Source: Candidatus Kapaibacterium sp.
GTDB taxonomy: Bacteria; Bacteroidota; Ignavibacteria; Kapaibacteriales; NICIL-2
Direction: 5' to 3'
Assembly (NCBI GenBank): GCA_040398805.1
Contig: JBBATK010000001.1
Location: 249,933 to 313,932, forward strand
DNA: 64,000 bases
The notes under the pieces are model-generated. The model made no database searches. It saw only the letters and a program-made list of their open reading frames with translations, and was not told where the DNA came from. Below are positions 8,801-44,026 of this stretch, piece after piece. The position numbers and the translations under genes are program-made. Positions within the stretch are counted from its first letter, which is position 1, and every line of letters begins with the position of its first letter.

Positions 8801-9948
8801 GCATAGGGAGCGGGTGCAGGAGTCGCCTCAATCGCTCGCTTTCCAGGCGTCCCACCCCACGTAAGGAAGTAGTACGACTGTTCGTCATAATGATTGATCC
8901 GGTGTTCAAAGCGACGGTTCTTCGCGTTAAAGGTGAATCCACGTTGAGCCGAGGCGTAGAAGATGACATCTAAAACATCTCCATTCGACGTGGTATTGAC
9001 GATGATCGGTATCTCGTTCAGTCGGTTCTTGATTGACAACGAGGGCGCTTCCGGAAGCTCCGAACCACCTCTGCCGTAGATTTTGACCGTACCTGCTTTA
9101 ACCGTCTCCAGTCGAACGCCAAGCTTGGCAAGCGACTCGGCACGTACTCGGTAGACACCCGACTCTTTGATCGGAATCTTGTACCACGTGGACTGACGAG
9201 ACGAGTCCGAAGCGACAGATCGTTTCTTCGATGTTTGGAGCCGAACGCCCGAGGATTTGCCCTCAGCGGATTTGCCCTCAGCCCCGAGACTCTTGTTCCA
9301 CAAGCGCACAGCGTGGTCGTTCAGCGTCTGCGTCGAAACGACGGGAAGCCGATCAGACTCCGCGAACGTCCCTTCGACGGAACCGAGTATGGGCGTGAAT
9401 GTTAGTGTCATGAGCACCGAATCGCAGACGATGCGGGATTCGGAGTTCTTTGCAGGCTGTTCGCAGACGGAAATGAATCGAACCAGATGCTGCGATCCGC
9501 TCTGTCCTAGATAGCTCAAACGAACGTATGGTACACTGCATCGGTCATCTGCGAGGTTCCATACTCCTTCGTTCGGCGTGCCGGTACCGCTGACGGTGAA
9601 CGTCTCGAACGTACCATCAGGCCTGACGAGTCGGCAATAAAGAACGCAAGATGCCACATGCCAATCTTTCTCTCCCGGAACGCTGATGAGCTCTCGAACG
9701 GCAGGAGCAACGACCGGGCGAGGACCTTCGGCAATGACGATTTCCGATGGGGCGTTGACCCGTGGAACGAGGCGTAAGAAATTATCAGACCGGAGAGAAT
9801 CCCAGCGAGCTATCGGCGACGTGACTCGGAGTGTGAGCCGGTCGCCCGTGGACTCCACGACGCGGACCGTCGCACCTTCTGCACAAAGCAGAGCGGAACT
9901 CACGATGAAGTTGAAGGCAAGGAAGAGAATGTGCGCGCGTAACCGCAT
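5830..9948 (-). CDS. porU: T9SS C-terminal signal peptidase PorU (gingipain-like peptidase C25 domain) with its own T9SS C-terminal sorting domain
   Basis: C25-like block (WGDGHYDYKN...NWIGHGNPKVWAHE...LFFLVAATCDFGRWDLP) and a C-terminal CTD (VVVYPNPFETRTTVLF...GVYPVVLHITTASG...). The start is chosen at MRLRAHILFLAFNFIVSSALLCA, a classic signal peptide. The ORF track extends to 10269 and 9978 is an alternative start. Confidence 0.8.
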   Translation of the reverse strand: MRLRAHILFLAFNFIVSSALLCAEGATVRVVESTGDRLTLRVTSPIARWDSLRSDNFLRLVPRVNAPSEIVIAEGPRPVVAPAVRELISVPGEKDWHVASCVLYCRLVRPDGTFETFTVSGTGTPNEGVWNLADDRCSVPYVRLSYLGQSGSQHLVRFISVCEQPAKNSESRIVCDSVLMTLTFTPILGSVEGTFAESDRLPVVSTQTLNDHAVRLWNKSLGAEGKSAEGKSSGVRLQTSKKRSVASDSSRQSTWYKIPIKESGVYRVRAESLAKLGVRLETVKAGTVKIYGRGGSELPEAPSLSIKNRLNEIPIIVNTTSNGDVLDVIFYASAQRGFTFNAKNRRFEHRINHYDEQSYYFLTWGGTPGKRAIEATPAPAPYANTPTQFTARVFQEEELVNAYSGGSGRRWFGQQIDAVLPRTFSTKLPGLIRNGSVEYVIDVAHKEVFSPDLSAKVSVSENGVKVTDVPLIGVNEPGYAEYVSMKVRGTLPAQSVNADGNSYLRFEYANPYVSGGGNAFLDFFEIHYPAVCSAVNDELTLYSDIGAVGTTQYSIGGFSNPALLGFDVSDPQNPILLRNTSSVGNIFQFAVALDSVTGPRTYFLSAKTRTADPVPVTWTYLRDEEISAEVIVVSADEFLSSANDFATYRAGKSGMNVRVVPMSAIVNEFGSGVGDPGAIRDFISHAYRTWTVKPKYVVLWGDGHYDYKNITTQRTSYIPSWQTIETDERFNDINIGYYTSSYVTDDFFVRIVGDDEVTDIPIGRLPIDSRAGGDAAIAKIRHYEESSSKDLWRTTATFVADDGPTSNGRSDGDLHTNQSEVLSNDTTCMPADMIQRKIYMAEYPAENIPKGKLKPRVTEDILSAVNNQGTLLLNWIGHGNPKVWAHETVLSRDVTIPQFTNYDKLFFLVAATCDFGRWDLPESQSGAELMLTSRRGGAIGAFTSSRVSFSALNAMIGRTLFRKMFSRDVKGNYLTMGDVVNATKQLHSGENDQKFMLLGDPTLKLVLPDLVASVDSINGISTDSKTSANVRAVSTVNLAGRIRKFGSDETVRDFNGAATVSMFDADILRRFMDPSAFSIGDSSSYDMVKFGGTLHRGNYKVDGGVFRAVFVVPKDIAFTNKNGRIFIYAQSDDNRHARGNSRAFSVGGIDTTDRADSEGPTVGLFLDNTTFLPGDIVRKNPLLIVALRDETGINSTGLGVGHKIEAWLDDSEESIDLSENYVSSLTDSRVGSATKQLFDLVPGMHSVRVRVWDVLNNYSERSTYFSVAPGDSTFVSGRVVVYPNPFETRTTVLFTHNQSFPLSIVAKVYSVNGVLVREESMTSTSLQSARFVWDGQDASGNELPSGVYPVVLHITTASGNLSTITALAVLSR

Positions 9949-10074
9949 GGGATACAGCAGTTGATCGTTAATACTCATGGCATGCAGACCGGAACCGCGT
10001 CCGATGTGACGAGCCGTTGAAAAAGAGTAGAGAATGATCGATAGGCGCGTGAGGAATTTTCGTAGAGAGACGAC

Positions 10075-10105
10075 CAAATATAGCCGAAGATTGTTCACCT
10101 TCAAA
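10075..10105 (-). promoter_or_regulatory. Candidate Bacteroidetes-type sigma-A promoter for porU (-7 TATATTTG, -33 TTTG, 19-nt spacer)
   Basis: Plus-strand caaatata (10075-10082) is the reverse complement of TAnnTTTG. Plus-strand caaa (10102-10105) is the reverse complement of TTTG. Confidence 0.3.
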
Positions 10106-10155
10106 AAAAGAATCTCTCGTGACGATGACGCATATTTTCCTACGTTTTTCTCCAC

Positions 10156-11397
10156 TTGGTACCAGCCCATCTCCAACGTGCCGTATTTTGCCACGTATTT
10201 CATTGGCAAAGCATGGCTTCGACTCTCGTTTTTGCGGTCTTTTGGCTTTCCGTCGCCGGAATCATCCATACGTACCTTTTGTTCCCGTTGCTTCTGAGTT
10301 CAATTGCGGGAATCAAGAGGCGCTCTTTAGGCGAAAAACACATGGATGATGCGGTTGTTTCCGTTCCGGACATCACCATCCTGATCGCAGCATACAACGA
10401 GGAGAAGAACATTCGTGAACGGATCGAGAATCTTGCTCAGTGCCAGTATCCGATTGGAAAAATGTCGGTCTTGGTAGGTTCTGACGGGTCCACCGATGCC
10501 ACGAATGCCATTCTTGCGGAGCTATCCTTGAAGTATGATTGGCTCGACGTGGTCGTTTTTGCTGAGAATCGAGGTAAGACCCCTGTCGTGAATTCCTTGA
10601 TCGCCAAAGTACGAACGCCGATAACCGTTCTCACCGACGCGGACACCATTTTCTCGACGGATGCACTTGTATCCATCGTCCAACCGTTCCGTGACCTGAG
10701 GGTGGGGTGCGTGGCCGGCGTGAGACGGGTACGCAATCAAGCAGTCGAATCCGTGACCTCGCTCCAGGAGTCATCGTACTTGGATCTCGACAATAGAATC
10801 CGCGTCGCCGAAGGTGAACTCGGTTGCATCATAGGTGCGCATGGAAGTCTGTACGCAATCCGCACGGAGCTCCTGGAACGGATTCCGGAAGATCGGCCCT
10901 TCACGGACGACTTTTTCCTCTCGATGATTCCGTTGGAGCGTGGTTTCAGGGTGATGCAGGCAGATCGTGCACTTTCTTTTGCGGAGGCCGCGGCGAGTCC
11001 GATGAAAGACTTCATGCGCAAGGTACGCTACTCTTCTACCGCATTCGCCACTTGTTTCCGTTTCGGCCACCTTTTATGGAGCAGTCGGCCGCTGGTCGCC
11101 TACTGCTTCTTTTCGCATCGTGTCTCGCGGTGGTTCCTTCCCTTTTTCTTAATGATTGCAGTCATCACAAACGTCGCTCTGCTGGGGACCGGATTCGTGT
11201 ATTCCGTTGCTCTTGCGATTCAGTCGCTCTTCTATCTTGGGGCTGTCATTGGCATTCTCATCCCGTCTACCGTAGCCCGCTCGCGGGTTTTCTCGCTTTC
11301 GGCGTATTTTGTGTACTCGAACGCAGCGTTGTTCGTCGGATTCTTCCGTTGGATATCCGGTCGCGCCTCTCATCGTTGGGTACCGAGCCGGAATTGA
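10156..11397 (+). CDS. Family 2 glycosyltransferase, membrane-integrated (N- and C-terminal TM helices). The likely ATG start is 10213 (MASTLVF...); the ORF-track start at 10156 is a TTG.
   Basis: ILIAAYNEEKNI...VGSDGSTD (the DxD region of GT2), a catalytic domain, then about 4 C-terminal TM helices. Confidence 0.8.
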   Translation: MVPAHLQRAVFCHVFHWQSMASTLVFAVFWLSVAGIIHTYLLFPLLLSSIAGIKRRSLGEKHMDDAVVSVPDITILIAAYNEEKNIRERIENLAQCQYPIGKMSVLVGSDGSTDATNAILAELSLKYDWLDVVVFAENRGKTPVVNSLIAKVRTPITVLTDADTIFSTDALVSIVQPFRDLRVGCVAGVRRVRNQAVESVTSLQESSYLDLDNRIRVAEGELGCIIGAHGSLYAIRTELLERIPEDRPFTDDFFLSMIPLERGFRVMQADRALSFAEAAASPMKDFMRKVRYSSTAFATCFRFGHLLWSSRPLVAYCFFSHRVSRWFLPFFLMIAVITNVALLGTGFVYSVALAIQSLFYLGAVIGILIPSTVARSRVFSLSAYFVYSNAALFVGFFRWISGRASHRWVPSRN

Positions 11398-29993: not shown

Positions 29994-30022
29994 TCCCTTC
30001 CTACCGACCGGATATTCGCCCG

Positions 30023-30805
30023 CTATAAGAGCGACCGCGTGCGACCTCCGTCGATGGTCAGATTTATCCCCGTGATGTACGCGGCTTCGTTCGATGCGAG
30101 AAACACGACGCCATGAGCTACTTCCTCAGGTTTCGCGAAGCGCTTCATGGGAATCTCTGAGACCATCTCCCGCTCCACTTCTTCGATGGTCTTCCCCGTT
30201 CTTCCGGCCGTCGCGTGAATGATGGACGACAGTCTGTGCGTTGCTGTCGCTCCGGGAAGGACGTTGTTTACGGTGATACCGAAGACGGCGACTTCCCGTG
30301 AGAGTGTTTTGGCCCACGCTGAGGTGGCGGAACGAATGGTGTTCGATACCCCGAGGTTATCCAACGGTTGACGGACGGATGTCGAAATGATGTTGATCAC
30401 GCGACCGAACTGCCGCTCCTTCATGCCGGGAAGACACTCCTTGACGATTTCGTGACCGCTAAGGAGCAAGCGGTTCATGGCGATGTGGAATGCTCCAGGA
30501 TCCGCACCCGCCAAAGGTCCGCCGGGAGGTCCACCGGAGTTGTTGACGACGACATCAATGCCGCCATGTCGCTCAAGGTAGTCATGGATAACGGACCGCA
30601 CGTGCGACGGGTCGTCGAAATCGGCGATGAGCATCGCATGACCCGTTCCGCTCAACTCTTCCAATACTGTTGTCAGCTTCTGTTGAGTGCGAGCGAAGGC
30701 GACGACTTTGGCTCCTGAGTTTGCAAAGGCAAGAGCGGTCGCCTTCCCGATGCCGTCGGTTGCGCCGCATACGAGGACCGTTCGGCCTGTGACGTTAAGA
30801 TGCAT
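30023..30805 (-). CDS. Short-chain dehydrogenase/reductase (SDR)
   Basis: TGRTVLVCGATDGIGKA Rossmann motif; the start is chosen at MHLNVTGR (the 100-aa ORF-track extension is rejected). About 260 aa. Confidence 0.75.
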   Translation of the reverse strand: MHLNVTGRTVLVCGATDGIGKATALAFANSGAKVVAFARTQQKLTTVLEELSGTGHAMLIADFDDPSHVRSVIHDYLERHGGIDVVVNNSGGPPGGPLAGADPGAFHIAMNRLLLSGHEIVKECLPGMKERQFGRVINIISTSVRQPLDNLGVSNTIRSATSAWAKTLSREVAVFGITVNNVLPGATATHRLSSIIHATAGRTGKTIEEVEREMVSEIPMKRFAKPEEVAHGVVFLASNEAAYITGINLTIDGGRTRSLL

Positions 30806-31703
30806 GATGGTGGTCTTTCGAATAATCTGATGGGTTGTACTTCCAACGTTTATGCTGCCATGACCATTGTCCCGGGTACTGGCGGATGATATCCTCGATG
30901 ATCGTCGTGCAACGCTGGACGAGCGTTTCCCGACCTTCCGGGGTGTCATCGATTCCATCCATCGAGACACGACCCGTCTTGACGACGTATCGCCCGTCAG
31001 CTTCTCGAATGGCAAACGCCGTGATGATATCGGCATTGAATCGAAGAGCAAGAGTCGCCGGAGCTTCGAATGTGACGGCGGGCCTTCCGAAAAAATCCAC
31101 GAACACATCCTTCCGCGGATCCGCCGCCTGATCGAGCATCATGCAGACGAAGCCGGCGGTGTTCAACGTGCGGACGATCTCTTTGGCGGCGTCGTCCATG
31201 GGTACCACACGAACGTTGTCCGAACTCCGACACTGATTGATGAGATCATTCATCAATCGGTTCCGTTGGGTCTTGGCGATGGAAATGGCACGAACGGATG
31301 CAAGATCCGCTGTCACCGGGACGGCCAATTCCCAATTGCCGATATGAGCACTGAGAAGGATGGCACCTTTGCCCTGGTCGCGGTTTCTCACGATCTCGTT
31401 ATCCTGTTCGAAAGAGAAGAGTGACAATCGCTCCTCCGCCGGCATGGACGAGATGGAGAAAAGTTCCACGTAACAGGTGGCGAAGTTGAGGTACGACTGT
31501 TTGGCGATGGAAGCTATCCACTCCTCTGTCGCATTCGGATACGCACACCTGACGTTATCCAGAGTGGTTCGCCAGCGGGAGGCAGACGACAGGACAAGCA
31601 GACGCGCGACGATGCGGGAAAGGACGGCTCGGACATGCGTTCCGCCTTTACCACCAAGGAACCCGAGAAGCCGTGCCAGCGTGTATGTCAATCTCTCAAG
31701 CAT
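30795..31703 (-). CDS. lpxL: Lipid A biosynthesis acyltransferase (LpxL/HtrB lysophospholipid acyltransferase family)
   Basis: LpxL-family H(X)4D region in ILLSAHIGNWEL and the typical length; the start is chosen at MLERLTY. Confidence 0.7.
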   Translation of the reverse strand: MLERLTYTLARLLGFLGGKGGTHVRAVLSRIVARLLVLSSASRWRTTLDNVRCAYPNATEEWIASIAKQSYLNFATCYVELFSISSMPAEERLSLFSFEQDNEIVRNRDQGKGAILLSAHIGNWELAVPVTADLASVRAISIAKTQRNRLMNDLINQCRSSDNVRVVPMDDAAKEIVRTLNTAGFVCMMLDQAADPRKDVFVDFFGRPAVTFEAPATLALRFNADIITAFAIREADGRYVVKTGRVSMDGIDDTPEGRETLVQRCTTIIEDIIRQYPGQWSWQHKRWKYNPSDYSKDHHHAS

Positions 31704-31707
31704 CGTG

Positions 31708-33093
31708 CTATTTGTTCTGCGACGGATCGATCGCATAGCGTCTATACCATAAGTCGTCGCGATGCTCGTTGAGCGCGGTGGAGTGGACAAGCGTGACATT
31801 GCCGGATCCCCGTTTGTCCACGAAAACGAAGATCACGCCTCCCTGGATGTTATCATACTCCCAGGTCTCGTGCGGGAAAGCGGCATCGTGATTGAAAATC
31901 ACCCTGTTGATATTCGTTGGAAAACCGTACCGAAGAATCACACGCCCGCGATCGCTATCCCACCCCCGCGGTGAGAAAGGATTGGTGAAGTTGAGTTTCG
32001 CATACTCAACCGCTTTTTTGAAGTCCTCATATCGCTCATTGACCGTTGTGGAGGGATTGGGGTCCTTGTGATACCAGTACCGGAAAAGAAACTTCTGTTT
32101 CGCATTCAGGGTGCTTAGTTGCTGGAAGCTCACCAGTTCTATATCGGGTCCGACCCGCTTGGCTTTTTCATATTCCTCTTGGATGCTTTCGGCATTCATG
32201 GTAGCGAACTCGCTTGCCAGAAAAAGCTGGTCCTCACTGAAAAGATCGGAAAGTTCCGGAGGGTACGCGGGGTTGAGGATATAGAATTTCTTCGACACCT
32301 GACTCGTTGGAATCGATGAACCATCCGGATGAAGGAGTGTAGCAGTAATGTAATAGACGCCGCTTGGAAGTATGTGAACCTGCTGCTCATAGACATCGGC
32401 CGCAACTGCATCCTTGACGCGTATGGTATGCGTCATGTCGAGAATGGGACGTCTGACGGCGTCGCTTATCGAATACAGCACCGACACGCTGTCCACCGGG
32501 TTGACAATATCCTGATTGATTTCCACATAGGTGCGTAATACCGGCATGTCACCGCAAACCTCTCTCGATGGAAGGACACTCACAGACGTCAGCGAAATCT
32601 CGTTCTTGCGTGTAGAATCCACCTCCGGTATCTGACAAATCAGGAGGTCACTGAGCGACAAACCTTTCTTCGAAAATGCTCGAATGACAAGAGGTACCTT
32701 GACGAATTCCTTTCGAGATGGACGTTGTCGGTCGGTTACCGAAAAGTTCAGGGTATACTGGCCCGGCTTCAATTGAAATGATTGGCGACTCACAAAGGTT
32801 TTGCGATTCGAATCAGCTGTGTTGGAAAGAGCACTCTCGACGCTGAACCGACGCTTTACTATTGAGTCTAACCCACTGAGACACACGATGTCGAAATCGA
32901 TTGCGCCCATCAACCCCGACGTGCTCTTCTTGTAGATGAACTGGGTGTCGGCCACCGCGACATAGACATCGACTCGAAGACGACCGGAGTCGCCTTTGAA
33001 CTGGGCAACGTCATACCCGAAGCGCGGTCCGTCGGCCCACACGCTCACGTGGAGGAAGAGAACGGATAGGAAGTACAGATAGGGACGACGCAT
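31708..33093 (-). CDS. GWxTD domain-containing secreted protein
   Basis: A signal peptide and a C-terminal GWDSDRGRVILRYGFP block that matches the GWxTDrGrvy-type motif of this FCB-group family. Confidence 0.65.
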   Translation of the reverse strand: MRRPYLYFLSVLFLHVSVWADGPRFGYDVAQFKGDSGRLRVDVYVAVADTQFIYKKSTSGLMGAIDFDIVCLSGLDSIVKRRFSVESALSNTADSNRKTFVSRQSFQLKPGQYTLNFSVTDRQRPSRKEFVKVPLVIRAFSKKGLSLSDLLICQIPEVDSTRKNEISLTSVSVLPSREVCGDMPVLRTYVEINQDIVNPVDSVSVLYSISDAVRRPILDMTHTIRVKDAVAADVYEQQVHILPSGVYYITATLLHPDGSSIPTSQVSKKFYILNPAYPPELSDLFSEDQLFLASEFATMNAESIQEEYEKAKRVGPDIELVSFQQLSTLNAKQKFLFRYWYHKDPNPSTTVNERYEDFKKAVEYAKLNFTNPFSPRGWDSDRGRVILRYGFPTNINRVIFNHDAAFPHETWEYDNIQGGVIFVFVDKRGSGNVTLVHSTALNEHRDDLWYRRYAIDPSQNK

Positions 33094-33160
33094 GAGGCAA
33101 AAATACCAAGTGCCGACATGGTTCCCCGTGTCGGCACTTGCTTCTTACAAAAACCGTTTC

Positions 33161-34291
33161 TTATTGGAAGCGCAGAGCCACACTCAAACGATTGACAACA
33201 CCAAGATCGGTTGTAGGCTGAATAGCGAAATCGACCATTCCGTCGAAGCCACCACCGACATACCGGACGCCGACACCGCCACTCAGTCCGAACTGGTCTT
33301 GATTGTAACGATAGCCGGCGCGGATGCAGAAGAGGTCGTTCCACGTGTATTCGGCACCAATTGCAGCTTGCTCGGGAACATCGGAAAGCGTCTCGAAGTC
33401 AGCAGCCATGACCAAGCGATGTTCTCTCGAGGTGTTGATGCCGAGATCAGGCAACGACTCGTACATCCCGAACCACTCAGACAACACGTCGCAAGCGATA
33501 CCAGCTTTAAAGGTCAGGGGAACATTGAAAGGACTGCTAAGAAGCGTCGCATCCAATTTCTGGTACTGTAACTGCGTAATCAGATCCGTTTTCGTAAACA
33601 GGTTGTTACCAGTGAACTGCATCTGCGATCCGAGATTACTGATCGAGAAGCCAGCACGATAGCCGCCGAAGCGGTACAACGTACCGATATCGACGAACAG
33701 GCCGGAAGCGGAAAGTGACGAGATGTTGTTCTGGACGAACTTCATCGACACGCCGAAACTGAACTGTTCCGTCAAGAATGCCGCAAAAGATCCGGCAATG
33801 GCCATATCGGCGATCTCGTACGAATTGCCTAGGCGGTTTTCGTCTTCGAGCGTCGTCAGCGGGATCGCACCGCTCGACAACGACGTAATGGAAAGGCCTG
33901 CCTTGTACTTCTCCCCTACCGGAAACACGCCGGCCAGGAAATTGTGACTATAGCCACCGAACCACTGCGTATGCGATATGTTAGCAGCATAGCCCTTGAT
34001 GTCGACGATTCCAGCAGAATTATAGAACAACGCGGAAAGATCGTTGGAGACTCCTGCGAAGGCACCTGCCATACCGTTGGCCCGAGCTCCTACGCCGATG
34101 CGCAGAAACTGTCCACCTGCAGCACCGACCTTACGGAACTGGCCACCGCTCACGCCTTGTGCATTATCACGAGGGTTCTGCGCAAGAGCTCCGAATGAGA
34201 GGAGCACCAATGCAGCGAACAGTGTACCGTACACTCGAGAGGTCTTGTTGATTACTGAGTTTTTCATATTCAGGATTAGATGTTTGTACAC
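33161..34291 (-). CDS. Second PorV/PorQ-family T9SS outer-membrane beta-barrel (paralogue of porV)
   Basis: 376 aa with a signal peptide, the motif IGVGARANGMAGAFAGVSNDLSALFYNSAGIV (compare PorV at 4731: PDARASGMGECGTALADNINAIFWNTGGLA), beta-barrel pattern and C-terminal RFQ. It lies 9 bp downstream of the CTD cargo gene. Confidence 0.65.
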   Translation of the reverse strand: MYKHLILNMKNSVINKTSRVYGTLFAALVLLSFGALAQNPRDNAQGVSGGQFRKVGAAGGQFLRIGVGARANGMAGAFAGVSNDLSALFYNSAGIVDIKGYAANISHTQWFGGYSHNFLAGVFPVGEKYKAGLSITSLSSGAIPLTTLEDENRLGNSYEIADMAIAGSFAAFLTEQFSFGVSMKFVQNNISSLSASGLFVDIGTLYRFGGYRAGFSISNLGSQMQFTGNNLFTKTDLITQLQYQKLDATLLSSPFNVPLTFKAGIACDVLSEWFGMYESLPDLGINTSREHRLVMAADFETLSDVPEQAAIGAEYTWNDLFCIRAGYRYNQDQFGLSGGVGVRYVGGGFDGMVDFAIQPTTDLGVVNRLSVALRFQ

Positions 34292-34299
34292 TGTGACGA

Positions 34300-37200
34300 T
34301 TAGCGAACCAGACGAGCACCACCGACGACAACGGAGAACTTCTTGATAGTCTTCGCACCATTTGGCGTCTCGATGACGGCAAAGAGTCCTTGACTCGTCG
34401 CACGTTGCTTGTTGTTGCTCAGAAGGTCCCAGATATCCATACCCTGGCGGTTAGTCCCGTCCTGATCAACGTGTTGAATCGTACGGATCAGATCGCCGTT
34501 CACCGTGTAGACTCTGATCGTGCACTCCTTGGGCAAGCGAGTGAAGAATATCTTGGCGTCGTAGGTAGACTTCTGACCGATGGACGAGATGACATACGGA
34601 TTCGGAACAACAAGGACATTGTTCAGGATATCGTCCGTGACGGCCTGGTTACCGTCCGCATCGAGAGGAAGTTCCGATGGACTGATGGTCATCGTCACCG
34701 TTGCTCCATCCTTCGGCAACCCAAACGCGCCTCCGAATGTCGACAACATGATCTTGTCTCCCGCTTGAAAATCCTTCGTCGGAATCAACGGAGTCTCCTG
34801 CGTGGAATCCGTATAGAGGCGTTCGTACGTTCTTCCACCGGAGGTAGCACCGGATCGTCCACCCTTGGCGGCATAGTCGATGAGGTACTCTGCACCGTCG
34901 ATTGCTATGAAGTGCGTGAAATCCAACGTGTCGTTGTTCTGAATCTTGGACAGGTAATACCGTCCCTGAGCAACCGGACGCCCGGTGTTTGTCTCCAAAG
35001 CTTGATAGCGTCGTGAATTGATTTTACCGATGGAGTTTGATTCCTTATCTGCGATGTTCGAAGCGGAATACCTACCGTTCAACCAGCCGTTCGCCGACAG
35101 ATTGAACGAGCCAACCGGAACAGCTTGGGGATCGGGGAACTCGCGAACAGTGGCCGTACCATTGGGAAGGTTCGGCGCGAGGGTCACCGGTAGCGAAACC
35201 GTTGCATGAGGGATATCTGCGCTGTTGCGAACCTCGATGCTGTCCTTTGTCGTTGCATCGAAACGCTTGAACGAGTACGTATTACGAACCCGAACATTCA
35301 GATATGGCACCTCCGTAAAATTGACCGTCACCGTGTCGACCACCGGAGTAGGAGGTGTCTTCGACGAGTCGATGTACCGACGGAGTCTCTTTGACGTGAT
35401 GTTTTCGACTCCTCCGGGAAGGAACTCCACGTCGTACCGACCAGGTCCGTTGTTGTAGGTCTCGTATCGAAGCAGCGAACCATTCAAGCGCGTGCGTTGA
35501 AGTCGTTCGTTCGGTGTGCTGTTGATCTTGCTATCCGACAACTGGACATCCGAGTTTCCTGCAACATGCTTGATGCCATCGACGCGAAGATATCCGCCCA
35601 GCTGCTGCATCGTGAAGTCGAACTCGATTCCCAGAGCTCCGTTGATGAAACGGTTCGGTGCGTTGCACGGCCGGTTGGTCGAGAACATACCAGACCGAGT
35701 AACGACGGAGCGATTGAACGGATTCGCGAAGTTAGCGGAGTCCGCCAGCAAGGAATCTGCGTCGAAACGACGGCCGGGTGACATTTGAACGACGGAGCAC
35801 TCACTGAAGAGTCCGGAGAACACGCAATCTTGAGGTTCATAGTACACATCGAAGTCGCCGAGCAAGGTGTTGGTCGTCAAATCTCGAACGTTCAGCGTAT
35901 GAGTATAGATACCCTCGAGGAGATTCAACGAATTACGATCAAATGCAGAGTCGACGGATGCATACGCACCATTGAACGCAAGGATATTCCGTTTGAACTC
36001 TAGTTGAATCTTATGACCGCCGAACAGCTCGTTGAAACGCTGTTGATCACCGGCGACGAGACGGAAGTTATGCAAACCCCCAAGGGAATTCGTGTCATAT
36101 TCCACCGAAGCCACGCCCGAATTCACCGAGGAACCCTGCGCCAGCGGGAACGCCTGCTGGAGATTCACTTTCTCCACCCCGTTATTCGTCTTGATGGGAG
36201 TTCTTTGGAAGTAATCCCCTTCGTCATACGCCAAGAGGCGATAGTAGTAATCAACATTATTGATGAGTTTCTCCGTCTTGGTGAGATCGGGGTCTGAGGA
36301 AACAACACCGTCCTGATTGTCATCGCCATAATCGACGTATCGGCGCTTCGACGTCACAGAATCGATGTAACGGCCCACCAGACTGCGATATTCTACTGTG
36401 TTTTCCAAGTCGTCGACAAGCCAGATGAGTTGAGCCTTACTATCGATGACCTGACGATACATGCTGTTGATCGCAACGCGGACGGCGGCTGTATCCGTTG
36501 CGGAGAATTTCGGAACAACCCCATTAGGACGTATGCGGACGAGACCGAGAGTCAAACTATCGTATTTGATCGGTGTGCTATACGCCGCTCGAGGGATCAA
36601 CGGAGCAAAAAACGAACGCCACGGTTCCGATCCCGTATTGGGAATGCGACGTATCAGGAACACACTCGTATCGCGCTCATCTGCGCTTGTGATGAACTTC
36701 GGATACAGTCTGCTGTATCCCGATTTCGTCAGGACCGTCGCGGAGGGGAAGAAGGGCGTCAAGATCGTCGTCGAATCGGCCTTGATGTCCGAAGAAACAT
36801 ACGGCTTCGGACATTCCCACCGTGCGATTTCCTTCCAACCGAACGGCCCCTTACCGAGCGAGTAATTCGCACTCGGAAGAGTCTGATTCACGTCGAAGGT
36901 GTCAAGATTGTTCACGCGAGCACGGAAAAGACGGTACCCGAGAAAGTCCATGCCCTTCTCTTGCGGGTCCACGGATGCCTCAGATGTCTTGTCCCATTCG
37001 ACGATGACACCATTATTGATTGGCTTCCATGTGATAGGGCCCACATCGGGCGGCTTCGGAGTAGCGAACGCATTGTCATAGACCGCTTGAGCGAATTTGT
37101 CACGACGGATGAGCTCGGACAGGTCGGCGCTGTCTCCGGTGGCTTCAGCACCTTTACCGGGAGGGGCGAAAATCATTCCAAGAACGACGCGGGCGGTGTC

Positions 37201-38529
37201 ACCTGGAGCCATGTTGAACGGTCCCGTCGCCATAAGGAATCGCTTATCGCCGGCTGCACCGTCACCGTCACGCTGACCCAACGCCATGAAGTCGTAACGT
37301 CCGATATCGCTCGTCGGATCGTTGGCAATCACCCAGTTTCTGAAGGTGCGAAGACCGATCTGTTCTTCACTCGTGTAGTACCCCTTGTCATGGCGGATGA
37401 AGCCGTTATTCGGATCCACAGCCGGACTCTCGAGAAAGTCCATGCCGATATATCCGAAGCCTTTTCCTCTTTCTACCGCGTTGTTTGTCTCAGACCATTG
37501 GAACGCCAAGTTTAATGTCGTGTCTTGAGAATAATAATTGACGCGGTCGTTATTCGCGATTTGCGCTCCCCCGTTCGGACCTATATCGAAGTCATAGGCA
37601 GGAGCCATCCAACACTTGTTCAGTGTATCCTTCGAGCGATTGATGATGTTATAGGCGATGAACAAGAAGTTCGCGTATTCGCCATAGCCCCATGAGTAGA
37701 TGGTCTGCTCATATTGAAGACGCAACGGATACCCACGACTTTCCGCAATATCCTTACCATCCTCGAACTGACGAAGGTCCGTGTCCTTGTACGTCGCGAA
37801 GATATCTTCATTCGAAACGAAAACTGGTCCCTTCTTCTTGCCATCGTCTGTCGTCGGCATCGACTCGCTGTTCCGCTGATTGACGTCGTACATGTACTTA
37901 CCGAAGTACCGAGTCTTCTCCTTATCGAAAGCATTATAGGAGAGGGTGTCTCCAGGCCCCGAGAAATCCCAGATCGCCCAATTCGGACCGTCAGCGGGAC
38001 GGCGCGGAGAACCGTCCACCTTGAAGTCCGTCGAAATGTATGTACGATACTTGGAGATACTCTCGGGATCGTCCTTCACTTCATCACCGTCTTCGATACG
38101 TCCAGGAGAAAGCCAGGAAGCGCCCGAATTCGGATTGTACGAGATTTCCGACATCTTCCGAATGATCGTATCTGTCGTTCCTGCCGCTGAATCGCGAATG
38201 ATGAGCTTTTTCGTTGCTGCGAACCATACACCTCCACCGAATATATATTGGTTCTGCGAGTTACGAGGCCAAAAGCCCCCACCGACGTTATTGGCAACAT
38301 TCAAACCGAAGATGCCGTAGTTCGTCGTATAGAACTGAATCTTACTGACGGTATTCTGTTGAAGGTCATTCTGTTTGAATACCCGTTGCAACTGATTCTT
38401 CCCTTTCGTCTTCGTTCTATCAATGTCTTTCGCTGATACGGTCGATAGACTTCCTACCAACAGCATCAAAAGACACGACATGCCGACCGGGCGTAGAAGG
38501 TTCATTGTATAATCTCCTAATGTTTTCAT
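34300..38529 (-). CDS. Very large secreted protein (1409 aa) of unknown function carrying a T9SS C-terminal sorting domain
   Basis: A signal peptide (MSCLLMLLVGSLSTVSA), a beta-rich N/T/S/G/Y-biased body with no HEXXH or subtilase motifs, and a C-terminal CTD (LVVPNPYV...CTIRVYTVNGDLIRTI...GLFAVIETPNG...). 38505 is an alternative start. Confidence 0.7.
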   Translation of the reverse strand: MKTLGDYTMNLLRPVGMSCLLMLLVGSLSTVSAKDIDRTKTKGKNQLQRVFKQNDLQQNTVSKIQFYTTNYGIFGLNVANNVGGGFWPRNSQNQYIFGGGVWFAATKKLIIRDSAAGTTDTIIRKMSEISYNPNSGASWLSPGRIEDGDEVKDDPESISKYRTYISTDFKVDGSPRRPADGPNWAIWDFSGPGDTLSYNAFDKEKTRYFGKYMYDVNQRNSESMPTTDDGKKKGPVFVSNEDIFATYKDTDLRQFEDGKDIAESRGYPLRLQYEQTIYSWGYGEYANFLFIAYNIINRSKDTLNKCWMAPAYDFDIGPNGGAQIANNDRVNYYSQDTTLNLAFQWSETNNAVERGKGFGYIGMDFLESPAVDPNNGFIRHDKGYYTSEEQIGLRTFRNWVIANDPTSDIGRYDFMALGQRDGDGAAGDKRFLMATGPFNMAPGDTARVVLGMIFAPPGKGAEATGDSADLSELIRRDKFAQAVYDNAFATPKPPDVGPITWKPINNGVIVEWDKTSEASVDPQEKGMDFLGYRLFRARVNNLDTFDVNQTLPSANYSLGKGPFGWKEIARWECPKPYVSSDIKADSTTILTPFFPSATVLTKSGYSRLYPKFITSADERDTSVFLIRRIPNTGSEPWRSFFAPLIPRAAYSTPIKYDSLTLGLVRIRPNGVVPKFSATDTAAVRVAINSMYRQVIDSKAQLIWLVDDLENTVEYRSLVGRYIDSVTSKRRYVDYGDDNQDGVVSSDPDLTKTEKLINNVDYYYRLLAYDEGDYFQRTPIKTNNGVEKVNLQQAFPLAQGSSVNSGVASVEYDTNSLGGLHNFRLVAGDQQRFNELFGGHKIQLEFKRNILAFNGAYASVDSAFDRNSLNLLEGIYTHTLNVRDLTTNTLLGDFDVYYEPQDCVFSGLFSECSVVQMSPGRRFDADSLLADSANFANPFNRSVVTRSGMFSTNRPCNAPNRFINGALGIEFDFTMQQLGGYLRVDGIKHVAGNSDVQLSDSKINSTPNERLQRTRLNGSLLRYETYNNGPGRYDVEFLPGGVENITSKRLRRYIDSSKTPPTPVVDTVTVNFTEVPYLNVRVRNTYSFKRFDATTKDSIEVRNSADIPHATVSLPVTLAPNLPNGTATVREFPDPQAVPVGSFNLSANGWLNGRYSASNIADKESNSIGKINSRRYQALETNTGRPVAQGRYYLSKIQNNDTLDFTHFIAIDGAEYLIDYAAKGGRSGATSGGRTYERLYTDSTQETPLIPTKDFQAGDKIMLSTFGGAFGLPKDGATVTMTISPSELPLDADGNQAVTDDILNNVLVVPNPYVISSIGQKSTYDAKIFFTRLPKECTIRVYTVNGDLIRTIQHVDQDGTNRQGMDIWDLLSNNKQRATSQGLFAVIETPNGAKTIKKFSVVVGGARLVR

Positions 38530-38547
38530 GTTCTTTTTATAGCCGTG

Positions 38548-41500
38548 TTAAAATCTGATGTTGAAACCGAAGTACACCTGGCGCGGGAACTGATAGTTGG
38601 TTCTGCGCTTGATCGCATCATTGACATACTTGAGGTACATCTGATACTGCTCGTACTGCGTGACGATACCGTCTTTATTGATATCGCTGTTCACGCTATA
38701 CAGTCGGTTTCCAAGGCGGTCGTATTGCGACAAGGCAAGCGAGTTCGGGTTATTCTCATCCGCTCTGCTATACAACGGCAACGAGGGAAATTCCCCTTGC
38801 TGACGATACAACGATACACCATCGTTGTCAGGATCCTTCGTCCGCGTATACACCAGTATCGGCTCGGTACGGTTGAAGACGTTTATCACATCGAGGAAGA
38901 TTTCGATATCGCTGGCACCGAACGAATCTCCGAAGATACTCTTGAAGGGAATACGACGGGAGATACGGCAATCGATGTTCCACAATGACGGATAACGCTC
39001 ACCGTTGAAATCACCAAGCTGATTACCCTTGAGATCAAGCAGCGTATACGGTTGACCTGACTGGAAGACACCGGTGAAGTTCAGATTCACCAACTCCAGA
39101 ATCTTCATTCCCGCAATGGTCGGTCCTTCGCCGGCACCCCACATCAAACCGCCGTTGAAGTTGATACGGTGACGGCGATCATAATCGAGAGGCGATTCGA
39201 CCAAGGGGAAAATCTTCTTGTCCGTAAAAGGATCAGAACCGGCGGTGATGATACCATAGTTCGAACCTACACTCGACGACGTACCCTGAGCATACTGAAG
39301 CGTATAGTTCAGGGTGAACTCGAAGTTGTTCGACAAGCGACGACGGAGGGAGATCTCGGTTCCGCGGACATTGCCGTACTCGCCGTTACTGACGAGTGAA
39401 TACGGCGTGCGGGTGTCTTCAACGTAGACAAGACCGGTGAGAGAGTAGATATCCTTGTAGTAGGCAGCCACGTCGAGGGCGAAATCATCGGAAAGCTGCG
39501 TGCTATACGAGACGTTGTATTGATTGGTACGTTCGGGACGCAGGTCGGGATTGGAAACTATGGTGTTTCCGCGACGGAGCACCGAAGAGATGTTGTCGTA
39601 CAACGAGGAGAAGATGGGAACCTGCGTATAGATACCGTAGGCGATGGTGAAGAAACTCGCATCGGAAATCGGGTATGACACGAACAAACGAGGACTGAAC
39701 TGTGTTTTGAACGACGCATCGACGCGGGAACTCTGGATGCTTTGCGGCTCGATGGCATACGCTGTTTTCGGATCGAACCCGTCGATACGCAGACCGGGAG
39801 TGAAGTTAATACCCTTGTATTGGATCTGATCACTCACGAAAATCGAACCCATGAGTGCCTGCTTGGGCTTGCTTCCCAGCTCACGCTCTTCGGCGAAAAG
39901 ACTATAGATATCACCACCGAATCGATCGTCATACACATCATAGAACGGATTGCTCGACCACGGAAGCGAGTTCGAGTAACGACGCACCGTGAAGCTTCGG
40001 ACGTCGAATCCGGCTTGCAAGACATGCTTCACGTCACCAAGCTGAATCATGTTCTGATAATTGCTCTTTGCTTGGATGAAGCTTGAGCTCCGGAACTCGA
40101 AGCCACCGCCACCGGCACCGATGAAGATACCTGTCAGACCATACGGATTATTCGTACTCGATGCATCCGTACCTTCTTCGATGTAGCCGGTAAGGTTACT
40201 GGGAACGAATGCATTGAAAGGCCGTTTCGGATCGTTGTCCAGGTACACCGTACCCTGAATGGCCGTATAATTATCAACGACTTTATCCCCTTGATCGCCG
40301 GACTTGCGGACAAGGCGCTGGTCGAACTGACGTTGTTGCAGAACATAATCATCGGTCGGCGTGAAGACTTTGTAGCCGGAGAAGAAGCTCGGTCCAGGCA
40401 AATCCGTCGACACCTTCGAGGGATCTACGGGCACACCATTGACAAGCTTCGATCCTGCGCCCATCGGAATGAAACGACGGGAGTTCTCGGTCACGTTGTT
40501 GTTGAACGAAATGGTCGCCTCATAGAAGCTGGTCGTGCTCAACTCATGATTCAAACGGGCGTAATAACTATAGATGAAGTTGTTCGCAACGTTCTGATGT
40601 GCTCTATTGATGGGCACTGTCGAGTAGAGGATGGTATCATTCAATCGTGTGCTGGGATTGTATTCGAACGTCCGTGAGGGAGCATTGGCATACAGCCAAC
40701 CCCAACCGGCGTAGGAAAGAGAGGTGAGACCCCAAGAACCTCCGAATTGGATTCTCATGTCACTCGACAGTTTGATCGGAAGTCGACCCGTTATATTTCG
40801 GACCTGAGACGATTCTCCCGGGATATGTCCCAAAGAGTTACCGGCTATATCCCGAGCATCCAAACCATCACCCAGGTAGTTCGTCGAGTTCACTGTTCGG
40901 AAATTGTCGGAATAATAGCGCACAGACATATAGAAGGTTGAACCGTCAAGTCCCGGCAACGGTCCGCCGAGTCCGAAGTCGAAGGTGTTTTCCAACATTC
41001 CTAAGGCCTGAAGGCCATTACCCGATTTGCCCCAGAGTCCCGGTACATCGGTCTTGAATCCGAAAAACGCTTCGTAACGGTCTGTACGACCGGTCTTGAC
41101 GGTTTGATTGATGACGCCGGCGGTGGTCTGACCATACTCTGCGCTGGCATTACCACGAATGACCTGTACGTCAGCCGTCGCTGCACGCGATGTCGTCGGT
41201 GCATACTTCAAGTCACCAGTCGATGTCGCAGCCGATCCGAAACCACCGGAGATAGCATCGGAAACGTCCTGGTCATCGATGAGAATACGCGTGTCGGTAT
41301 TTCGACCTCCACGGATACTGATACCACCGCCCGTGGACAATACGCCCGTCGTTGTCAACGCGATCTGCTGAGCATTATCCTTACCGGCCGTACGAAGCAT
41401 GACCTCACCGCTGACCTTATCGGCGACTGCGACTTGCTTATCATCATTGATGCGTTGGGCAGTGACGACGACGTCTTTCGTTACGACGTCTTTGGATTTC

Positions 41501-41805
41501 AGACTGATGGATCCCACGTTCGTCGTCTGGTCGGCACTGATGGTGATCTTTCGTTCAACGGTCTCAAGACCCGTGAACGTGATTTTGAGCTCGTAATTTC
41601 CCGCAGGGATGTTGATGATATCAAATGAACCATCCGCCTTCGTGTACGCACCCTTCTTCGTGCCAACGACACTGACGGCTGCACCCTTCAGGCGCTTACC
41701 TTCGTTGTCTTTGACGACCCCCGCAACCGATCCGTTCGTTCCGGCAAATGCATGCACGCTCGCGAAGAGGATGGCGATTATGATAAACATCACCCGATGC
41801 TTCAT
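38548..41805 (-). CDS. Oar-like outer-membrane protein: N-terminal carboxypeptidase-regulatory-like domain, then a TonB-dependent-receptor plug and a large beta-barrel (1085 aa)
   Basis: Start at MKHRVMFIIIAILFASVHAFA. GSVAGVVKD...GAAVSV marks the CarbopepD_reg-like domain, ISIRGG the plug, and the barrel ends YFGFNIRF. No SusD-like partner is present. Confidence 0.75.
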   Translation of the reverse strand: MKHRVMFIIIAILFASVHAFAGTNGSVAGVVKDNEGKRLKGAAVSVVGTKKGAYTKADGSFDIINIPAGNYELKITFTGLETVERKITISADQTTNVGSISLKSKDVVTKDVVVTAQRINDDKQVAVADKVSGEVMLRTAGKDNAQQIALTTTGVLSTGGGISIRGGRNTDTRILIDDQDVSDAISGGFGSAATSTGDLKYAPTTSRAATADVQVIRGNASAEYGQTTAGVINQTVKTGRTDRYEAFFGFKTDVPGLWGKSGNGLQALGMLENTFDFGLGGPLPGLDGSTFYMSVRYYSDNFRTVNSTNYLGDGLDARDIAGNSLGHIPGESSQVRNITGRLPIKLSSDMRIQFGGSWGLTSLSYAGWGWLYANAPSRTFEYNPSTRLNDTILYSTVPINRAHQNVANNFIYSYYARLNHELSTTSFYEATISFNNNVTENSRRFIPMGAGSKLVNGVPVDPSKVSTDLPGPSFFSGYKVFTPTDDYVLQQRQFDQRLVRKSGDQGDKVVDNYTAIQGTVYLDNDPKRPFNAFVPSNLTGYIEEGTDASSTNNPYGLTGIFIGAGGGGFEFRSSSFIQAKSNYQNMIQLGDVKHVLQAGFDVRSFTVRRYSNSLPWSSNPFYDVYDDRFGGDIYSLFAEERELGSKPKQALMGSIFVSDQIQYKGINFTPGLRIDGFDPKTAYAIEPQSIQSSRVDASFKTQFSPRLFVSYPISDASFFTIAYGIYTQVPIFSSLYDNISSVLRRGNTIVSNPDLRPERTNQYNVSYSTQLSDDFALDVAAYYKDIYSLTGLVYVEDTRTPYSLVSNGEYGNVRGTEISLRRRLSNNFEFTLNYTLQYAQGTSSSVGSNYGIITAGSDPFTDKKIFPLVESPLDYDRRHRINFNGGLMWGAGEGPTIAGMKILELVNLNFTGVFQSGQPYTLLDLKGNQLGDFNGERYPSLWNIDCRISRRIPFKSIFGDSFGASDIEIFLDVINVFNRTEPILVYTRTKDPDNDGVSLYRQQGEFPSLPLYSRADENNPNSLALSQYDRLGNRLYSVNSDINKDGIVTQYEQYQMYLKYVNDAIKRRTNYQFPRQVYFGFNIRF

Positions 41806-41953: not shown

Positions 41954-44026
41954 TTATCGGAGTACCGTGATATTCTTTGTGACAACGCCGTCGGCCGTGC
42001 GAACCGAAAGTACATACGCACCTACCGCCAGGTTGTTCGTCGAAATCGTCTTGTAGACTCGACCAATTTCATTGATAGCCGCCGAATACACGATTTGGCC
42101 GACAGCATTGCTCATTGTTACGGTTCCATTGCCGCCATTGTTCTCGAAAGCGACCGTCAGTTCTTCGCTTGCCGGATTCGGTGATGCGACGAGGCCAATG
42201 GTTTCCGACGTATTATCACGTACACTCACCTGCGTAAGACCGTTCCACGCCGGAAGGTCTGCAACCGTGAAGTTCGAGACCGTCAGGTACTGCTTGTACA
42301 AGTCGAAGTTGTCGGCATTGGACGACGCGAGACGCATCTGCGAATCATACAGTCTCTCACGAATGGTCAACCCCTTGTCAGCAGTTTGCAATGTGACCAG
42401 CGGTATGTTTTTCATGTCGCTAGGCACTACCGTCGGCAACCATGTCGTGCGATCGACGATGTCGCTTTGTGTGACGTTCTTGACGATCGACCAATCTCCA
42501 CCGGACTTGGCACGCGTGCTGAGAACGACATCTGTTGAGAGAATCGTGTCTTGGACACCGTCTTCGTTCTTGAACGTGACATACTTTGCCTCAAGGAACT
42601 TGCAGATGATGGTATTCTCGTCGGCAGTGACAGCAGCCTGAAGTTCATTACCCATCTGCGTGGGGCTGAGTGAACCGTCGTTATCAAAAGCTCTCCAGAA
42701 ATCCGCATTCTCGAACAAGGAAACGTTCGCCACCTTACGGATACCCCATTGACCATTATTGAAGTAACATTCTACCAGATGTGTCTCCGCAGGCTGCGAC
42801 GACGGAACATAGAACTGGGTGAAACAGCTGTACATGTCAGGACCGTAGGCGACAAAAGCATAGGTGGTCAGACGGATGCCCACGCTGGCATCTGAGGAGC
42901 TGCGCGTCCAATCGAAGAACACACTATCGGGATCACAGTTCAGCGACCGTGCATACGCAGCGAAAACGGACTGCGGAAGGATGTTGAAGTTACCCCATGC
43001 TTCTCCATGATTCGTCGACTTCGAAACGCCAAAGGTTCTGAAGGTGGAATCGTCGTTAGCAACGAAAAACCCGAAGCTGGCATTGTAGAAATTGCCCGCC
43101 TTGTCACGGCTCATTCCTACGTGATTACGCGTGCGGCTGCTGGCAGAGGAGACGCTAAGGAACTTGTTGCTTGCCCACTGAGCCGGAACGGTCAGCTTTG
43201 GCTTCGTTGCTGATTCGTAGAAATCCTTTCTCCACAGGCCGACAGAGTTCACATCGGCAGGGCTCGTGCTCGACGAATCACTGGGAATGAGGTCTACGGA
43301 AAAGCACGAAATGAGCTTGTCGTCAGCAGAGGTACGATAGCTTGCCGTCGTACATTCCGTACCCCACCAGAAGGGAGAGCCGTTGATGATGATTTCGTCG
43401 CCGATTTCGTCGTAGGCGGCCGACGAAGTGGGATCGTTCGCTTGGTAGCCGATCACCGAGCCGTCCCAGCCACGCTCTCGACCGCCCGTGCCCGTCGCAT
43501 TTTTTGTCAACGGTGCAAAGAACGTGAAGACCGCTTCATCGATGACTTTACCGCCCTCAGGAACGACGATATCAACCGATGGGTACCGAGGCAAACCACC
43601 GCGGGAAGCGTCACCGGTATGCAATGAGAACGGGCGTTCCCATGTCTTGCCAAGATTTCCAGAAACCAGCAATCTCAGGCAGTTCGAATTATCAGGATTG
43701 CCCGGTGCGTTCGGAGCCGGAAGCGCTCCTCGTTTGATGACGGCGAAAAGACCCGTTCCAGGCTCGTAAGAGATAGGTTGTTGCTCTGAACCATAGAACG
43801 AATACGCATTGAACAACGAATCAATCACTCTGTATTCCGCAGCCGCTTGGATGCGATTGGACTTGAGACCAAGTGTCGTCACCGGGACGTTCGAAAGACG
43901 CGTCGGGACCGCACGGGTGTCCGGTGCGAACGTGGGTCGTGATGATGGAATCTCCTGTGCAACCGCAGAAATGGTGCCGAGAAACAACGAAACCGCGGCA
44001 AATGCGCCGGAAAACAAGTGCTTCAT
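41954..44026 (-). CDS. BNR/Asp-box repeat protein with a T9SS C-terminal sorting domain
   Basis: A signal peptide, Asp-box-like SxxxGxxW repeats (SGNLGKTW, STNHGEAW, SGGDWS) and a C-terminal CTD (LVASPNPASEELTVAF...GAYVLSVRTADG...). Confidence 0.6.
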   Translation of the reverse strand: MKHLFSGAFAAVSLFLGTISAVAQEIPSSRPTFAPDTRAVPTRLSNVPVTTLGLKSNRIQAAAEYRVIDSLFNAYSFYGSEQQPISYEPGTGLFAVIKRGALPAPNAPGNPDNSNCLRLLVSGNLGKTWERPFSLHTGDASRGGLPRYPSVDIVVPEGGKVIDEAVFTFFAPLTKNATGTGGRERGWDGSVIGYQANDPTSSAAYDEIGDEIIINGSPFWWGTECTTASYRTSADDKLISCFSVDLIPSDSSSTSPADVNSVGLWRKDFYESATKPKLTVPAQWASNKFLSVSSASSRTRNHVGMSRDKAGNFYNASFGFFVANDDSTFRTFGVSKSTNHGEAWGNFNILPQSVFAAYARSLNCDPDSVFFDWTRSSSDASVGIRLTTYAFVAYGPDMYSCFTQFYVPSSQPAETHLVECYFNNGQWGIRKVANVSLFENADFWRAFDNDGSLSPTQMGNELQAAVTADENTIICKFLEAKYVTFKNEDGVQDTILSTDVVLSTRAKSGGDWSIVKNVTQSDIVDRTTWLPTVVPSDMKNIPLVTLQTADKGLTIRERLYDSQMRLASSNADNFDLYKQYLTVSNFTVADLPAWNGLTQVSVRDNTSETIGLVASPNPASEELTVAFENNGGNGTVTMSNAVGQIVYSAAINEIGRVYKTISTNNLAVGAYVLSVRTADGVVTKNITVLR

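Follow-up and report, generated by a model that had tools for sequence, protein, structure and literature searches.

One outer-membrane barrel dedicated to one protein with a C-terminal domain (CTD) is an arrangement already known in type IX secretion systems (T9SS), from PorQ and PorZ, from PorV and PorU, and from the PorP/SprF barrels and type-B cargo (PMC10947112, PMC12618676). PorQ, a barrel resembling PorV, needs neither PorU nor PorV to bind PorZ, and the proposal is that it takes the translocon site of PorV and collects PorZ there as its own substrate (PMC10947112). PorP/SprF barrels act as cognate shuttles and anchors of adjacent type-B cargo (PMC12618676). The noncleaved CTDs of PorZ and PorU are 96 and 108 amino acids (aa) long, respectively, and cleaved CTDs are 67 to 88 aa long (PMC11285876). 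Knowledge of the T9SS rests almost wholly on a few Bacteroidota, and both the choice of partner by PorV-family paralogs and the joint role of PorF, PorQ, and PorZ are still unsettled. Here, we describe a locus within a 64,000-nucleotide stretch (the window) of Candidatus Kapaibacterium sp. (GenBank assembly GCA_040398805.1, contig JBBATK010000001.1, positions 249,933 to 313,932) in which a PorV/PorQ-family barrel, here termed barrel 2, is encoded behind a secreted protein of about 1,400 aa, here termed the giant. We consider it moderately probable that barrel 2 is a PorQ-like PorV paralog dedicated to the giant encoded just upstream, which it would receive and anchor at the outer membrane.

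Barrel 2 belongs to the PorV/PorQ family but to none of its named groups

The minus-strand open reading frames (ORFs) of the giant and barrel 2 were both confirmed at the coordinates first proposed for them (Table 1). Profile hidden Markov model (HMM) searches bore out the original prediction, made from the window alone, that two PorV/PorQ-family barrels are encoded, as both exceeded the 90-bit cutoff of the NCBIfam model PorV_fam (NF033709). The other barrel (290 bits) was correctly placed in its canonical position behind porU, with 250.8 bits against the PorV equivalog (cutoff, 250) and a neighbor that scores 826.7 bits with T9SS_sortase. Barrel 2 scored 161.4 bits with PorV_fam over residues 60 to 375, covering profile positions 4 to 326 of 326. 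Its scores fell below the equivalog cutoffs for PorV (NF033710; 66.4 bits, cutoff 250, with the alignment confined to the N-terminal half), PorQ (NF033711; 67.3 bits, cutoff 220), and PorV2 (NF052325; 61.7 bits, cutoff 325). All 28 sampled orthologs likewise matched PorV_fam, none reached the PorV, PorQ, or PorV2 equivalog cutoff, and the lowest PorQ E value among the 29 barrel sequences scanned was 6e-29, still far under the cutoff. Within the PorV/PorQ family, barrel 2 lies outside the PorV, PorQ, and PorV2 equivalog groups.

Other families were matched less well. The Pfam model for PorP/SprF (PF11751) gave 21.7 bits (cutoff, 22.3) with no individually significant stretch, and precedence is given to PorV_fam, for which the match is far stronger; the match to Pfam PorV was subthreshold. 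A transporter of the FadL/OmpP1/TodX type, which had been named in advance as an assignment that would count against the predicted family, was rejected, as Toluene_X (PF03349) gave 15.9 bits over 23 residues (cutoff, 29.7). The sole solved relative found by sequence was Flavobacterium johnsoniae PorV (6H3I_F; E = 1.6e-6). Barrel 2 and the PorV of the window aligned end to end over about 330 residues with 21% identity (E = 1e-10), making them distant paralogs. The N-terminal signature that they were said to share is approximate and not exact, reading ARANGMAG...ALFYNSAG in barrel 2 and ARASGMGE...AIFWNTGG in PorV.

The CTD of the giant resembles those of PorZ and PorU

The C-terminal ~103 residues of the giant have the T9SS CTD fold, a C-terminal Ig-like beta-sandwich, and harbor VVPNP and the C-terminal motifs of secreted T9SS substrates. 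The proposal that the giant ends in a T9SS sorting domain was therefore right as to fold and is qualified here as to class, which is PorZ/PorU-like rather than type A. Among 22 CTDs of the giant family, 21 matched the CTD segment of the PorZ model (best E = 5e-8) and 12 that of the PorU model, with four weak matches to the type A model TIGR04183 and none to Pfam Por_Secre_tail (PF18962). For the giant of the window, the type A models (TIGR04183 and PF18962) gave no match even at E values of up to 10. The PorZ model NF052228 matched it with about 20 bits (cutoff, 260), through the CTD segment only (profile positions 666 to 747). These are low-bit HMM matches that are highly consistent across the family, and judged by them the CTD is of a PorZ/PorU-like class rather than type A and is closest to the CTD of PorZ. 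Its length of ~103 aa is near those of the noncleaved PorZ and PorU CTDs. No part of the giant is better conserved than its CTD, in which the fraction of residues agreeing with the column majority was 0.71 versus 0.55 in the body; for the type A CTD of a neighboring 690-aa protein, examined over a comparable genome set, it was 0.40. By analogy with PorZ and PorU, the CTD would not be cleaved by PorU and would be kept on the mature protein.

It is on account of this CTD class that the least likely reading of the pair is one in which barrel 2 is a transient, PorV-like shuttle that takes the giant from the translocon to PorU for CTD cleavage and attachment to lipopolysaccharide (LPS), which corresponds to the cargo-dedicated shuttle of the original prediction. 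The PorV family membership of barrel 2, the presence of PorU in the window, and the VVPNP and C-terminal motifs of the giant would all suit such a shuttle. However, the class and length of the CTD match those of the noncleaved PorZ and PorU CTDs and not type A (PMC11285876), conservation as high as that seen here is unusual for a disposable signal, and ordinary type A paralogs do without a dedicated barrel at the one locus examined, so that we regard this reading as very improbable.

The giant is a lineage-wide family with a widespread N-terminal domain

No Pfam or NCBIfam family could be assigned to the giant, permissive thresholds included, and a profile of the whole protein found no match among PDB sequences. 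In databases, 455 homologs were detected, almost all of them 1,250 to 1,590 aa long and labeled "hypothetical"; their sources are Kapabacteria, Ignavibacteria, and Chlorobiota-type metagenome-assembled genomes (MAGs). When one genome per species was scanned, at least 262 genomes of Kapabacteria/Ignavibacteria species proved to encode a relative. The description of the giant as simply an unrelated cargo did not hold, as it belongs to a lineage-wide family with 35 to 74% identity across 80 retrieved loci and a PorZ/PorU-type CTD. An alignment of 31 homologs had a mean column identity of 42%; numerous Asp, Glu, Asn, Trp, and Gly residues were invariant, and conservation was strongest in residues 40 to 600 and the last ~110 residues.

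AlphaFold2 models of moderate confidence (pLDDT, 63 to 66; pTM, 0.60 to 0.64) gave an all-beta fold for the giant, consisting of a supersandwich and an array of beta-sandwiches. The N-terminal part models as a galactose-mutarotase-like (GalM-like) beta-supersandwich and not as a propeller, which suggests a role related to surface glycans or LPS. Searches with PF01364 and NF033707 identified no C25 peptidase domain outside the weak CTD match, and Pfam and NCBIfam scans detected no catalytic family of glycoside hydrolases or lyases.

An exhaustive search with a profile of the N-terminal domain (~430 residues) recovered 2,929 cluster representatives at E < 1e-3, many of them about 510 to 570 aa long. 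Each of four sampled proteins of 513 to 565 aa combined a giant-type N-domain with a canonical Pfam type A CTD, and three longer sampled matches likewise carried a canonical type A CTD. The domain defines a large family for which there is no Pfam or NCBIfam model; occurring unannotated in thousands of T9SS substrates, it merits a family model of its own. Beyond the copy in the window (37060-38367), occurrences include P0290, P0303, P0353, P0375, and positions 6090-11527 of L082. At the one locus examined, three genes for short N-domain paralogs lie in tandem behind an extracytoplasmic function (ECF) sigma factor gene, with no PorV-like barrel nearby; in this example, the dedicated barrel goes with the unusual CTD of the long form and not with the N-domain. 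The 690-aa protein encoded upstream was tried as a further bearer of this domain and was rejected (hhalign probability, 0.2%).

The pair lies within a conserved envelope block

To describe the neighborhood, the 80 loci retrieved from the 262-genome scan were compared with the proteins of the window by tblastn; denominators below are the loci with enough flanking sequence. A PorV/PorQ-family barrel was found directly downstream of the giant gene, on the same strand, in 75/75 loci, and chance adjacency was rejected on that count. The pairing is not accidental, and the failure of conservation that had been named as grounds for abandoning it did not appear in any of these loci. While the conserved pair of the original prediction thus stood, the prediction overlooked a TonB-dependent receptor that is linked as tightly, its gene lying directly upstream of the giant gene in 69/69 loci. 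With the receptor invariably upstream and the barrel invariably downstream, the conserved unit goes beyond a pair to include at least three genes (receptor, giant, and barrel, here termed the triad), set within an envelope block of six to seven genes.

The receptor of the window matched CarbopepD_reg_2 with 64.7 bits and Plug with 21.4 bits (cutoff, 23.9), and in precomputed annotation its homologs carry PF13715 (CarbopepD_reg_2), PF07715 (Plug), and PF00593 (TonB_dep_Rec). By these domains the upstream gene is assigned to the TonB-dependent receptor family as a genuine member. A homolog search returned lineage orthologs and, beyond the lineage, generic TonB-dependent receptors. Directly upstream of the receptor, 59 of 63 loci encode a type A CTD protein of 650 to 700 aa. 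The 690-aa representative in the window scored 33 bits with Por_Secre_tail (cutoff, 27) and 27.3 bits with TIGR04183 (cutoff, 23) and is probably a beta-propeller; since those 59 loci have an ORF of comparable size with a CTD ahead of the receptor, it is probably part of the conserved block.

Downstream of the barrel, a GWxTD-domain protein was found in 52/64 loci, as well as in L081 and L083, and an LpxL-type acyltransferase in 50/62. In L081 and L083, the LpxL-type gene is followed by a glycosyltransferase family 9 (GT9) gene, and an ECF sigma factor gene lies near the block in L081. The downstream envelope genes span 30795-33093 in the window, 15811-19185 in L081, and 12427-15727 in L083, and the GT9 gene of the distant genomes is of the heptosyltransferase family. 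A distant Ignavibacteria contig with independent gene calls encodes, in order, a Por_Secre_tail protein, the receptor, the long form, the barrel, GWxTD, Lip_A_acyltrans, and Glyco_transf_9, and the genes around a very divergent long form (P0369) are arranged in the same way. The GWxTD domain, for which a search of the available literature found no papers, has a conserved tie to a barrel of the PorV family and to lipid A genes. The literature searched also held no description of a fixed linkage between such a pair and a TonB-dependent receptor plus LPS genes. Taxonomic labels were taken from the titles of the MAG records, and several of these evidently belong to misbinned genomes: the block also occurs in MAGs labeled Hyphomicrobiales, Bradyrhizobiaceae, Patescibacteria, Chloroflexota, and Chitinophagaceae (L019, L044, L049, L053, L057, L075, and L078), and these labels are most likely binning or labeling errors in public records.

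The invariable presence of a receptor whose N terminus carries a CarboxypepD_reg domain beside a protein with a GalM-like supersandwich, a fold common to many carbohydrate-active enzymes, would also suit a SusC/SusD-like unit for nutrient acquisition. In such a unit the giant, located at the surface, would bind or process glycans and feed the TonB-dependent transporter, barrel 2 would be a mere tether, and the LPS genes would be neighbors through chance of operon history. The second secreted protein upstream, with its Asp-box-like motifs, and the nearby ECF sigma factor of L081 fit this as well. Polysaccharide-utilization loci of Bacteroidota are, however, usually variable and patchy, whereas this block is present in at least 262 species genomes in one fixed gene order. 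In addition, no catalytic family of glycoside hydrolases or lyases was detected, and most loci keep the LpxL and GT9 linkage. We consider a nutrient-acquisition unit unlikely.

The lipid A and LPS-core genes (LpxL-type and GT9) that follow the block speak for a further alternative, in which the triad would be a counterpart, in Ignavibacteriota, of the PorF-PorZ-PorQ arm of T9SS attachment. The giant would then functionally replace PorZ and present an LPS-type anchor glycolipid to PorU, barrel 2 would be the local PorQ, and the receptor would be PorF-like. PorF of Porphyromonas gingivalis is predicted to resemble TonB-dependent receptors, and deletions of porF, porQ, and porZ have a common late-stage phenotype (PMC12704123); in Cytophaga hutchinsonii, a PorF-like receptor coimmunoprecipitates with PorV (PMC8564354). 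The similarity of the giant's CTD to that of PorZ, a supersandwich fold typical of carbohydrate-binding modules, and a lineage-wide conservation that suits a machinery component more than a cargo also argue for this counterpart. Set against them, the giant has no homology to the beta-propellers of PorZ, its score with the full PorZ model being about 20 bits against 260, and barrel 2 is equally near PorQ and PorV (67 versus 66 bits). The detectable relatives of the receptor past the lineage are generic, its likeness to PorF being one of literature description, and the same N-domain in multicopy, ordinary type A cargo suggests a function directed at environmental substrates. We therefore hold this counterpart to be possible but doubtful.

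A probable dedicated anchor for the giant

The reading that we favor is that barrel 2 and the giant are probably a dedicated surface-anchoring module of the kind known from PorQ-PorZ, within a conserved envelope operon. Both proteins would reach the periplasm via Sec, as signal peptides are visible in both sequences (ending in STVSA before KD in the giant and in GALA before QNP in barrel 2). The giant, whose last ~103 residues have the T9SS CTD fold, would then use the type IX translocon to cross the outer membrane; porU and porV in the window show that the T9SS is present. The CTD of the giant would escape cleavage by PorU and stay on barrel 2, as that of PorZ does on PorQ and that of PorU on PorV, and the large, beta-sandwich-rich protein would thereby be held on the cell surface. 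The pair would act inside the operon with the receptor gene upstream and the GWxTD, LpxL-type, and GT9 genes usually after it.

This reading is supported by PorV_fam membership, the length and conservation of the CTD, synteny, and the precedents of PorQ-PorZ and PorP/SprF, and it also counts in its favor that the barrel tracks the unusual CTD, as judged from the locus of short type A paralogs without one. The labels first offered for the barrel, a PorQ-type protein, a dedicated shuttle, or an alternative anchoring route, pointed in the right direction; the concept was already known, so it is less novel than it had appeared. Several points weigh on the other side. Measured in absolute terms, matches to the CTDs of PorZ and PorU are weak (~20 bits for the giant of the window), a profile of the giant CTD gave only chance-level matches to PDB sequences and found no PDB CTD, and the models of the giant are only moderately confident. 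What the analysis shows is the family of barrel 2, the fold and class of the CTD, and the synteny; retention of the CTD is argued from analogy, and the physical contact between barrel 2 and the CTD, like the glycan or LPS role, is one that we infer. Barrel 2 may instead serve the 690-aa type A protein or the receptor, and canonical PorQ and PorZ may also be encoded in these genomes.

Gene boundaries and other features of the locus

The positions of the genes are given in Table 1. The spacing of 9 bp first reported between the giant and barrel 2 holds from the GTG start of the mechanical ORF, whereas the probable ATG start at 34267 lies 32 nucleotides past the TAA of the giant; the latter start is preferred because a database protein 100% identical to barrel 2 has 368 aa. 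The giant is probably 1,401 aa long and not 1,409, since all 31 aligned homologs begin at M9, which is preceded by GGAG.

Table 1. Positions of the genes and domains in the window, with the PorV and PorU genes as comparators
Feature	Position	Strand	Description
Barrel 2	33161..34267	minus	PorV/PorQ-family outer-membrane beta-barrel, 368 aa from ATG at 34267
Barrel 2, mechanical ORF	33161-34291	minus	376 aa, GTG start at 34291
Giant protein gene	34300..38529	minus	ORF of 1,409 aa, secreted, conserved; probable true start M9 at 38505
N-terminal conserved domain of giant	37060..38367	minus	~Residues 55-490; modeled as galactose-mutarotase-like beta-supersandwich
C-terminal domain of giant	34303..34611	minus	~Residues 1307-1409, 103 aa; T9SS CTD fold, assigned to PorZ/PorU-like class
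TonB-dependent receptor	38548..41805	minus	~1,085 aa, N-terminal CarboxypepD_reg domain; mechanical ORF reaches 42021
690-aa protein	41954..44026	minus	Canonical type A T9SS CTD; Asp-box/BNR-like motifs (GKTWE, HGEAWG, GGDWS)
GWxTD-domain protein	31708..33093	minus	461 aa; TIGR04514, 65.9 bits (cutoff, 28)
LpxL-type lipid A biosynthesis acyltransferase	30795..31799	minus	PF03279, 156 bits; true start probably downstream of 31799
PorV, comparator	4731..5801	minus	356 aa; PorV_fam, 290 bits; PorV equivalog, 250.8 bits (cutoff, 250)
PorU sortase, comparator	5830..10269	minus	ORF of 1,479 aa; T9SS_sortase, 826.7 bits over residues 358-1467; Peptidase_C25, 286 bits

The mechanical ORF of the receptor (38548-42021) overlaps the stop of the upstream gene (41954-44026) by 68 nucleotides. 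The identical database protein has 1,085 aa, which places the receptor start near 41805 and leaves an intergenic gap of ~150 nucleotides; a hairpin with a 10-bp stem, reported on the plus strand, was found within this gap at 41944-41968. A scan of 29800-44600 for promoters and terminators gave counts at chance level, the sole strong minus-strand terminator lying after the short-chain dehydrogenase/reductase (SDR) gene, near 29890-29865. The real start of PorU is probably well downstream of 10269, with the long N-terminal extension of the ORF probably untranslated, as the PorU model aligns from residue 358 onward and a signal-peptide-like stretch is present near residues 108 to 131 (MRLRAHILFLAFNFIVSSALLCAEG).

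Comparison with known systems

A lineage that is a sister to the well-studied Bacteroidota hard-wires a barrel, a giant with a PorZ/PorU-like tail, and a TonB-dependent receptor into one operon beside lipid A/LPS genes. The triad offers a natural test of whether CTD class dictates the receiving barrel of a T9SS substrate, whether noncleaved CTDs serve as permanent anchors, and whether a TonB-dependent receptor joins the late steps of the T9SS. Its significance would grow if equivalence to PorF-PorZ-PorQ were confirmed. On that tentative and rather unlikely supposition, the LPS-delivery arm of T9SS attachment in Ignavibacteriota would be built from different parts in one operon, namely, a PorF-like receptor, a ~1,400-aa giant replacing PorZ and bearing a PorZ-type CTD, and a PorQ-like barrel, beside lipid A/core LPS genes. 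For the first time, the functions of PorF, PorZ, and PorQ would be tied genetically to the biosynthesis of LPS, and it would be shown that an unrelated fold can fill the role of PorZ.

The closest counterpart is PorQ-PorZ of the P. gingivalis attachment complex, in which a PorV-family barrel likewise serves one secreted protein with an atypical, long, noncleaved CTD (PMC10947112, PMC11285876), although retention would here follow by analogy. The CTD of the giant is most similar to that of PorZ, but outside the CTD the two are unrelated, the giant being a ~1,400-aa array of supersandwich and beta-sandwiches and PorZ two beta-propellers in ~776 aa. Barrel 2 also falls below the PorQ equivalog cutoff (67 versus 220 bits), and here the two genes are adjacent and linked to a TonB-dependent receptor. 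With porU-porV, the locus shares a gene order in which the PorV-family barrel comes after a large CTD protein; PorU retains its CTD, and the PorU CTD segment was matched by 12 of the 22 giant CTDs. However, the giant has no C25 peptidase domain and barrel 2 is just 21% identical to the PorV of the window.

The PorP/SprF pairs, such as SprF-SprB of F. johnsoniae, resemble the locus in that a cargo-specific outer-membrane barrel is encoded beside a large surface protein (PMC12618676, PMC9143113). They differ in that barrel 2 is of the PorV/PorQ subfamily, its PF11751 score of 21.7 bits being just below 22.3, and in that the CTD of the giant is not type B, with no TIGR04131-type match reported. 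PorF (PG0534) is comparable as a protein of the TonB-dependent-receptor type tied to late T9SS steps with PorQ and PorZ (PMC12704123), and a PorF-like receptor copurifies with PorV (PMC8564354); the receptor of the window is likened to it by description only, and the relatives detected for it beyond the lineage are TonB-dependent receptors of a generic type. The putative PorU2/PorV2 of NCBIfam (NF052324/NF052325) similarly form a second pair of sortase-like and PorV-like genes beside the canonical pair, but barrel 2 scores 62 bits against the PorV2 cutoff of 325 and the giant has no PorU2 match. What the locus shares with the described systems is the principle of the dedicated barrel; new here are the undescribed family of the giant, a barrel outside the PorV, PorQ, and PorV2 groups, and the linkage to a receptor and LPS genes.

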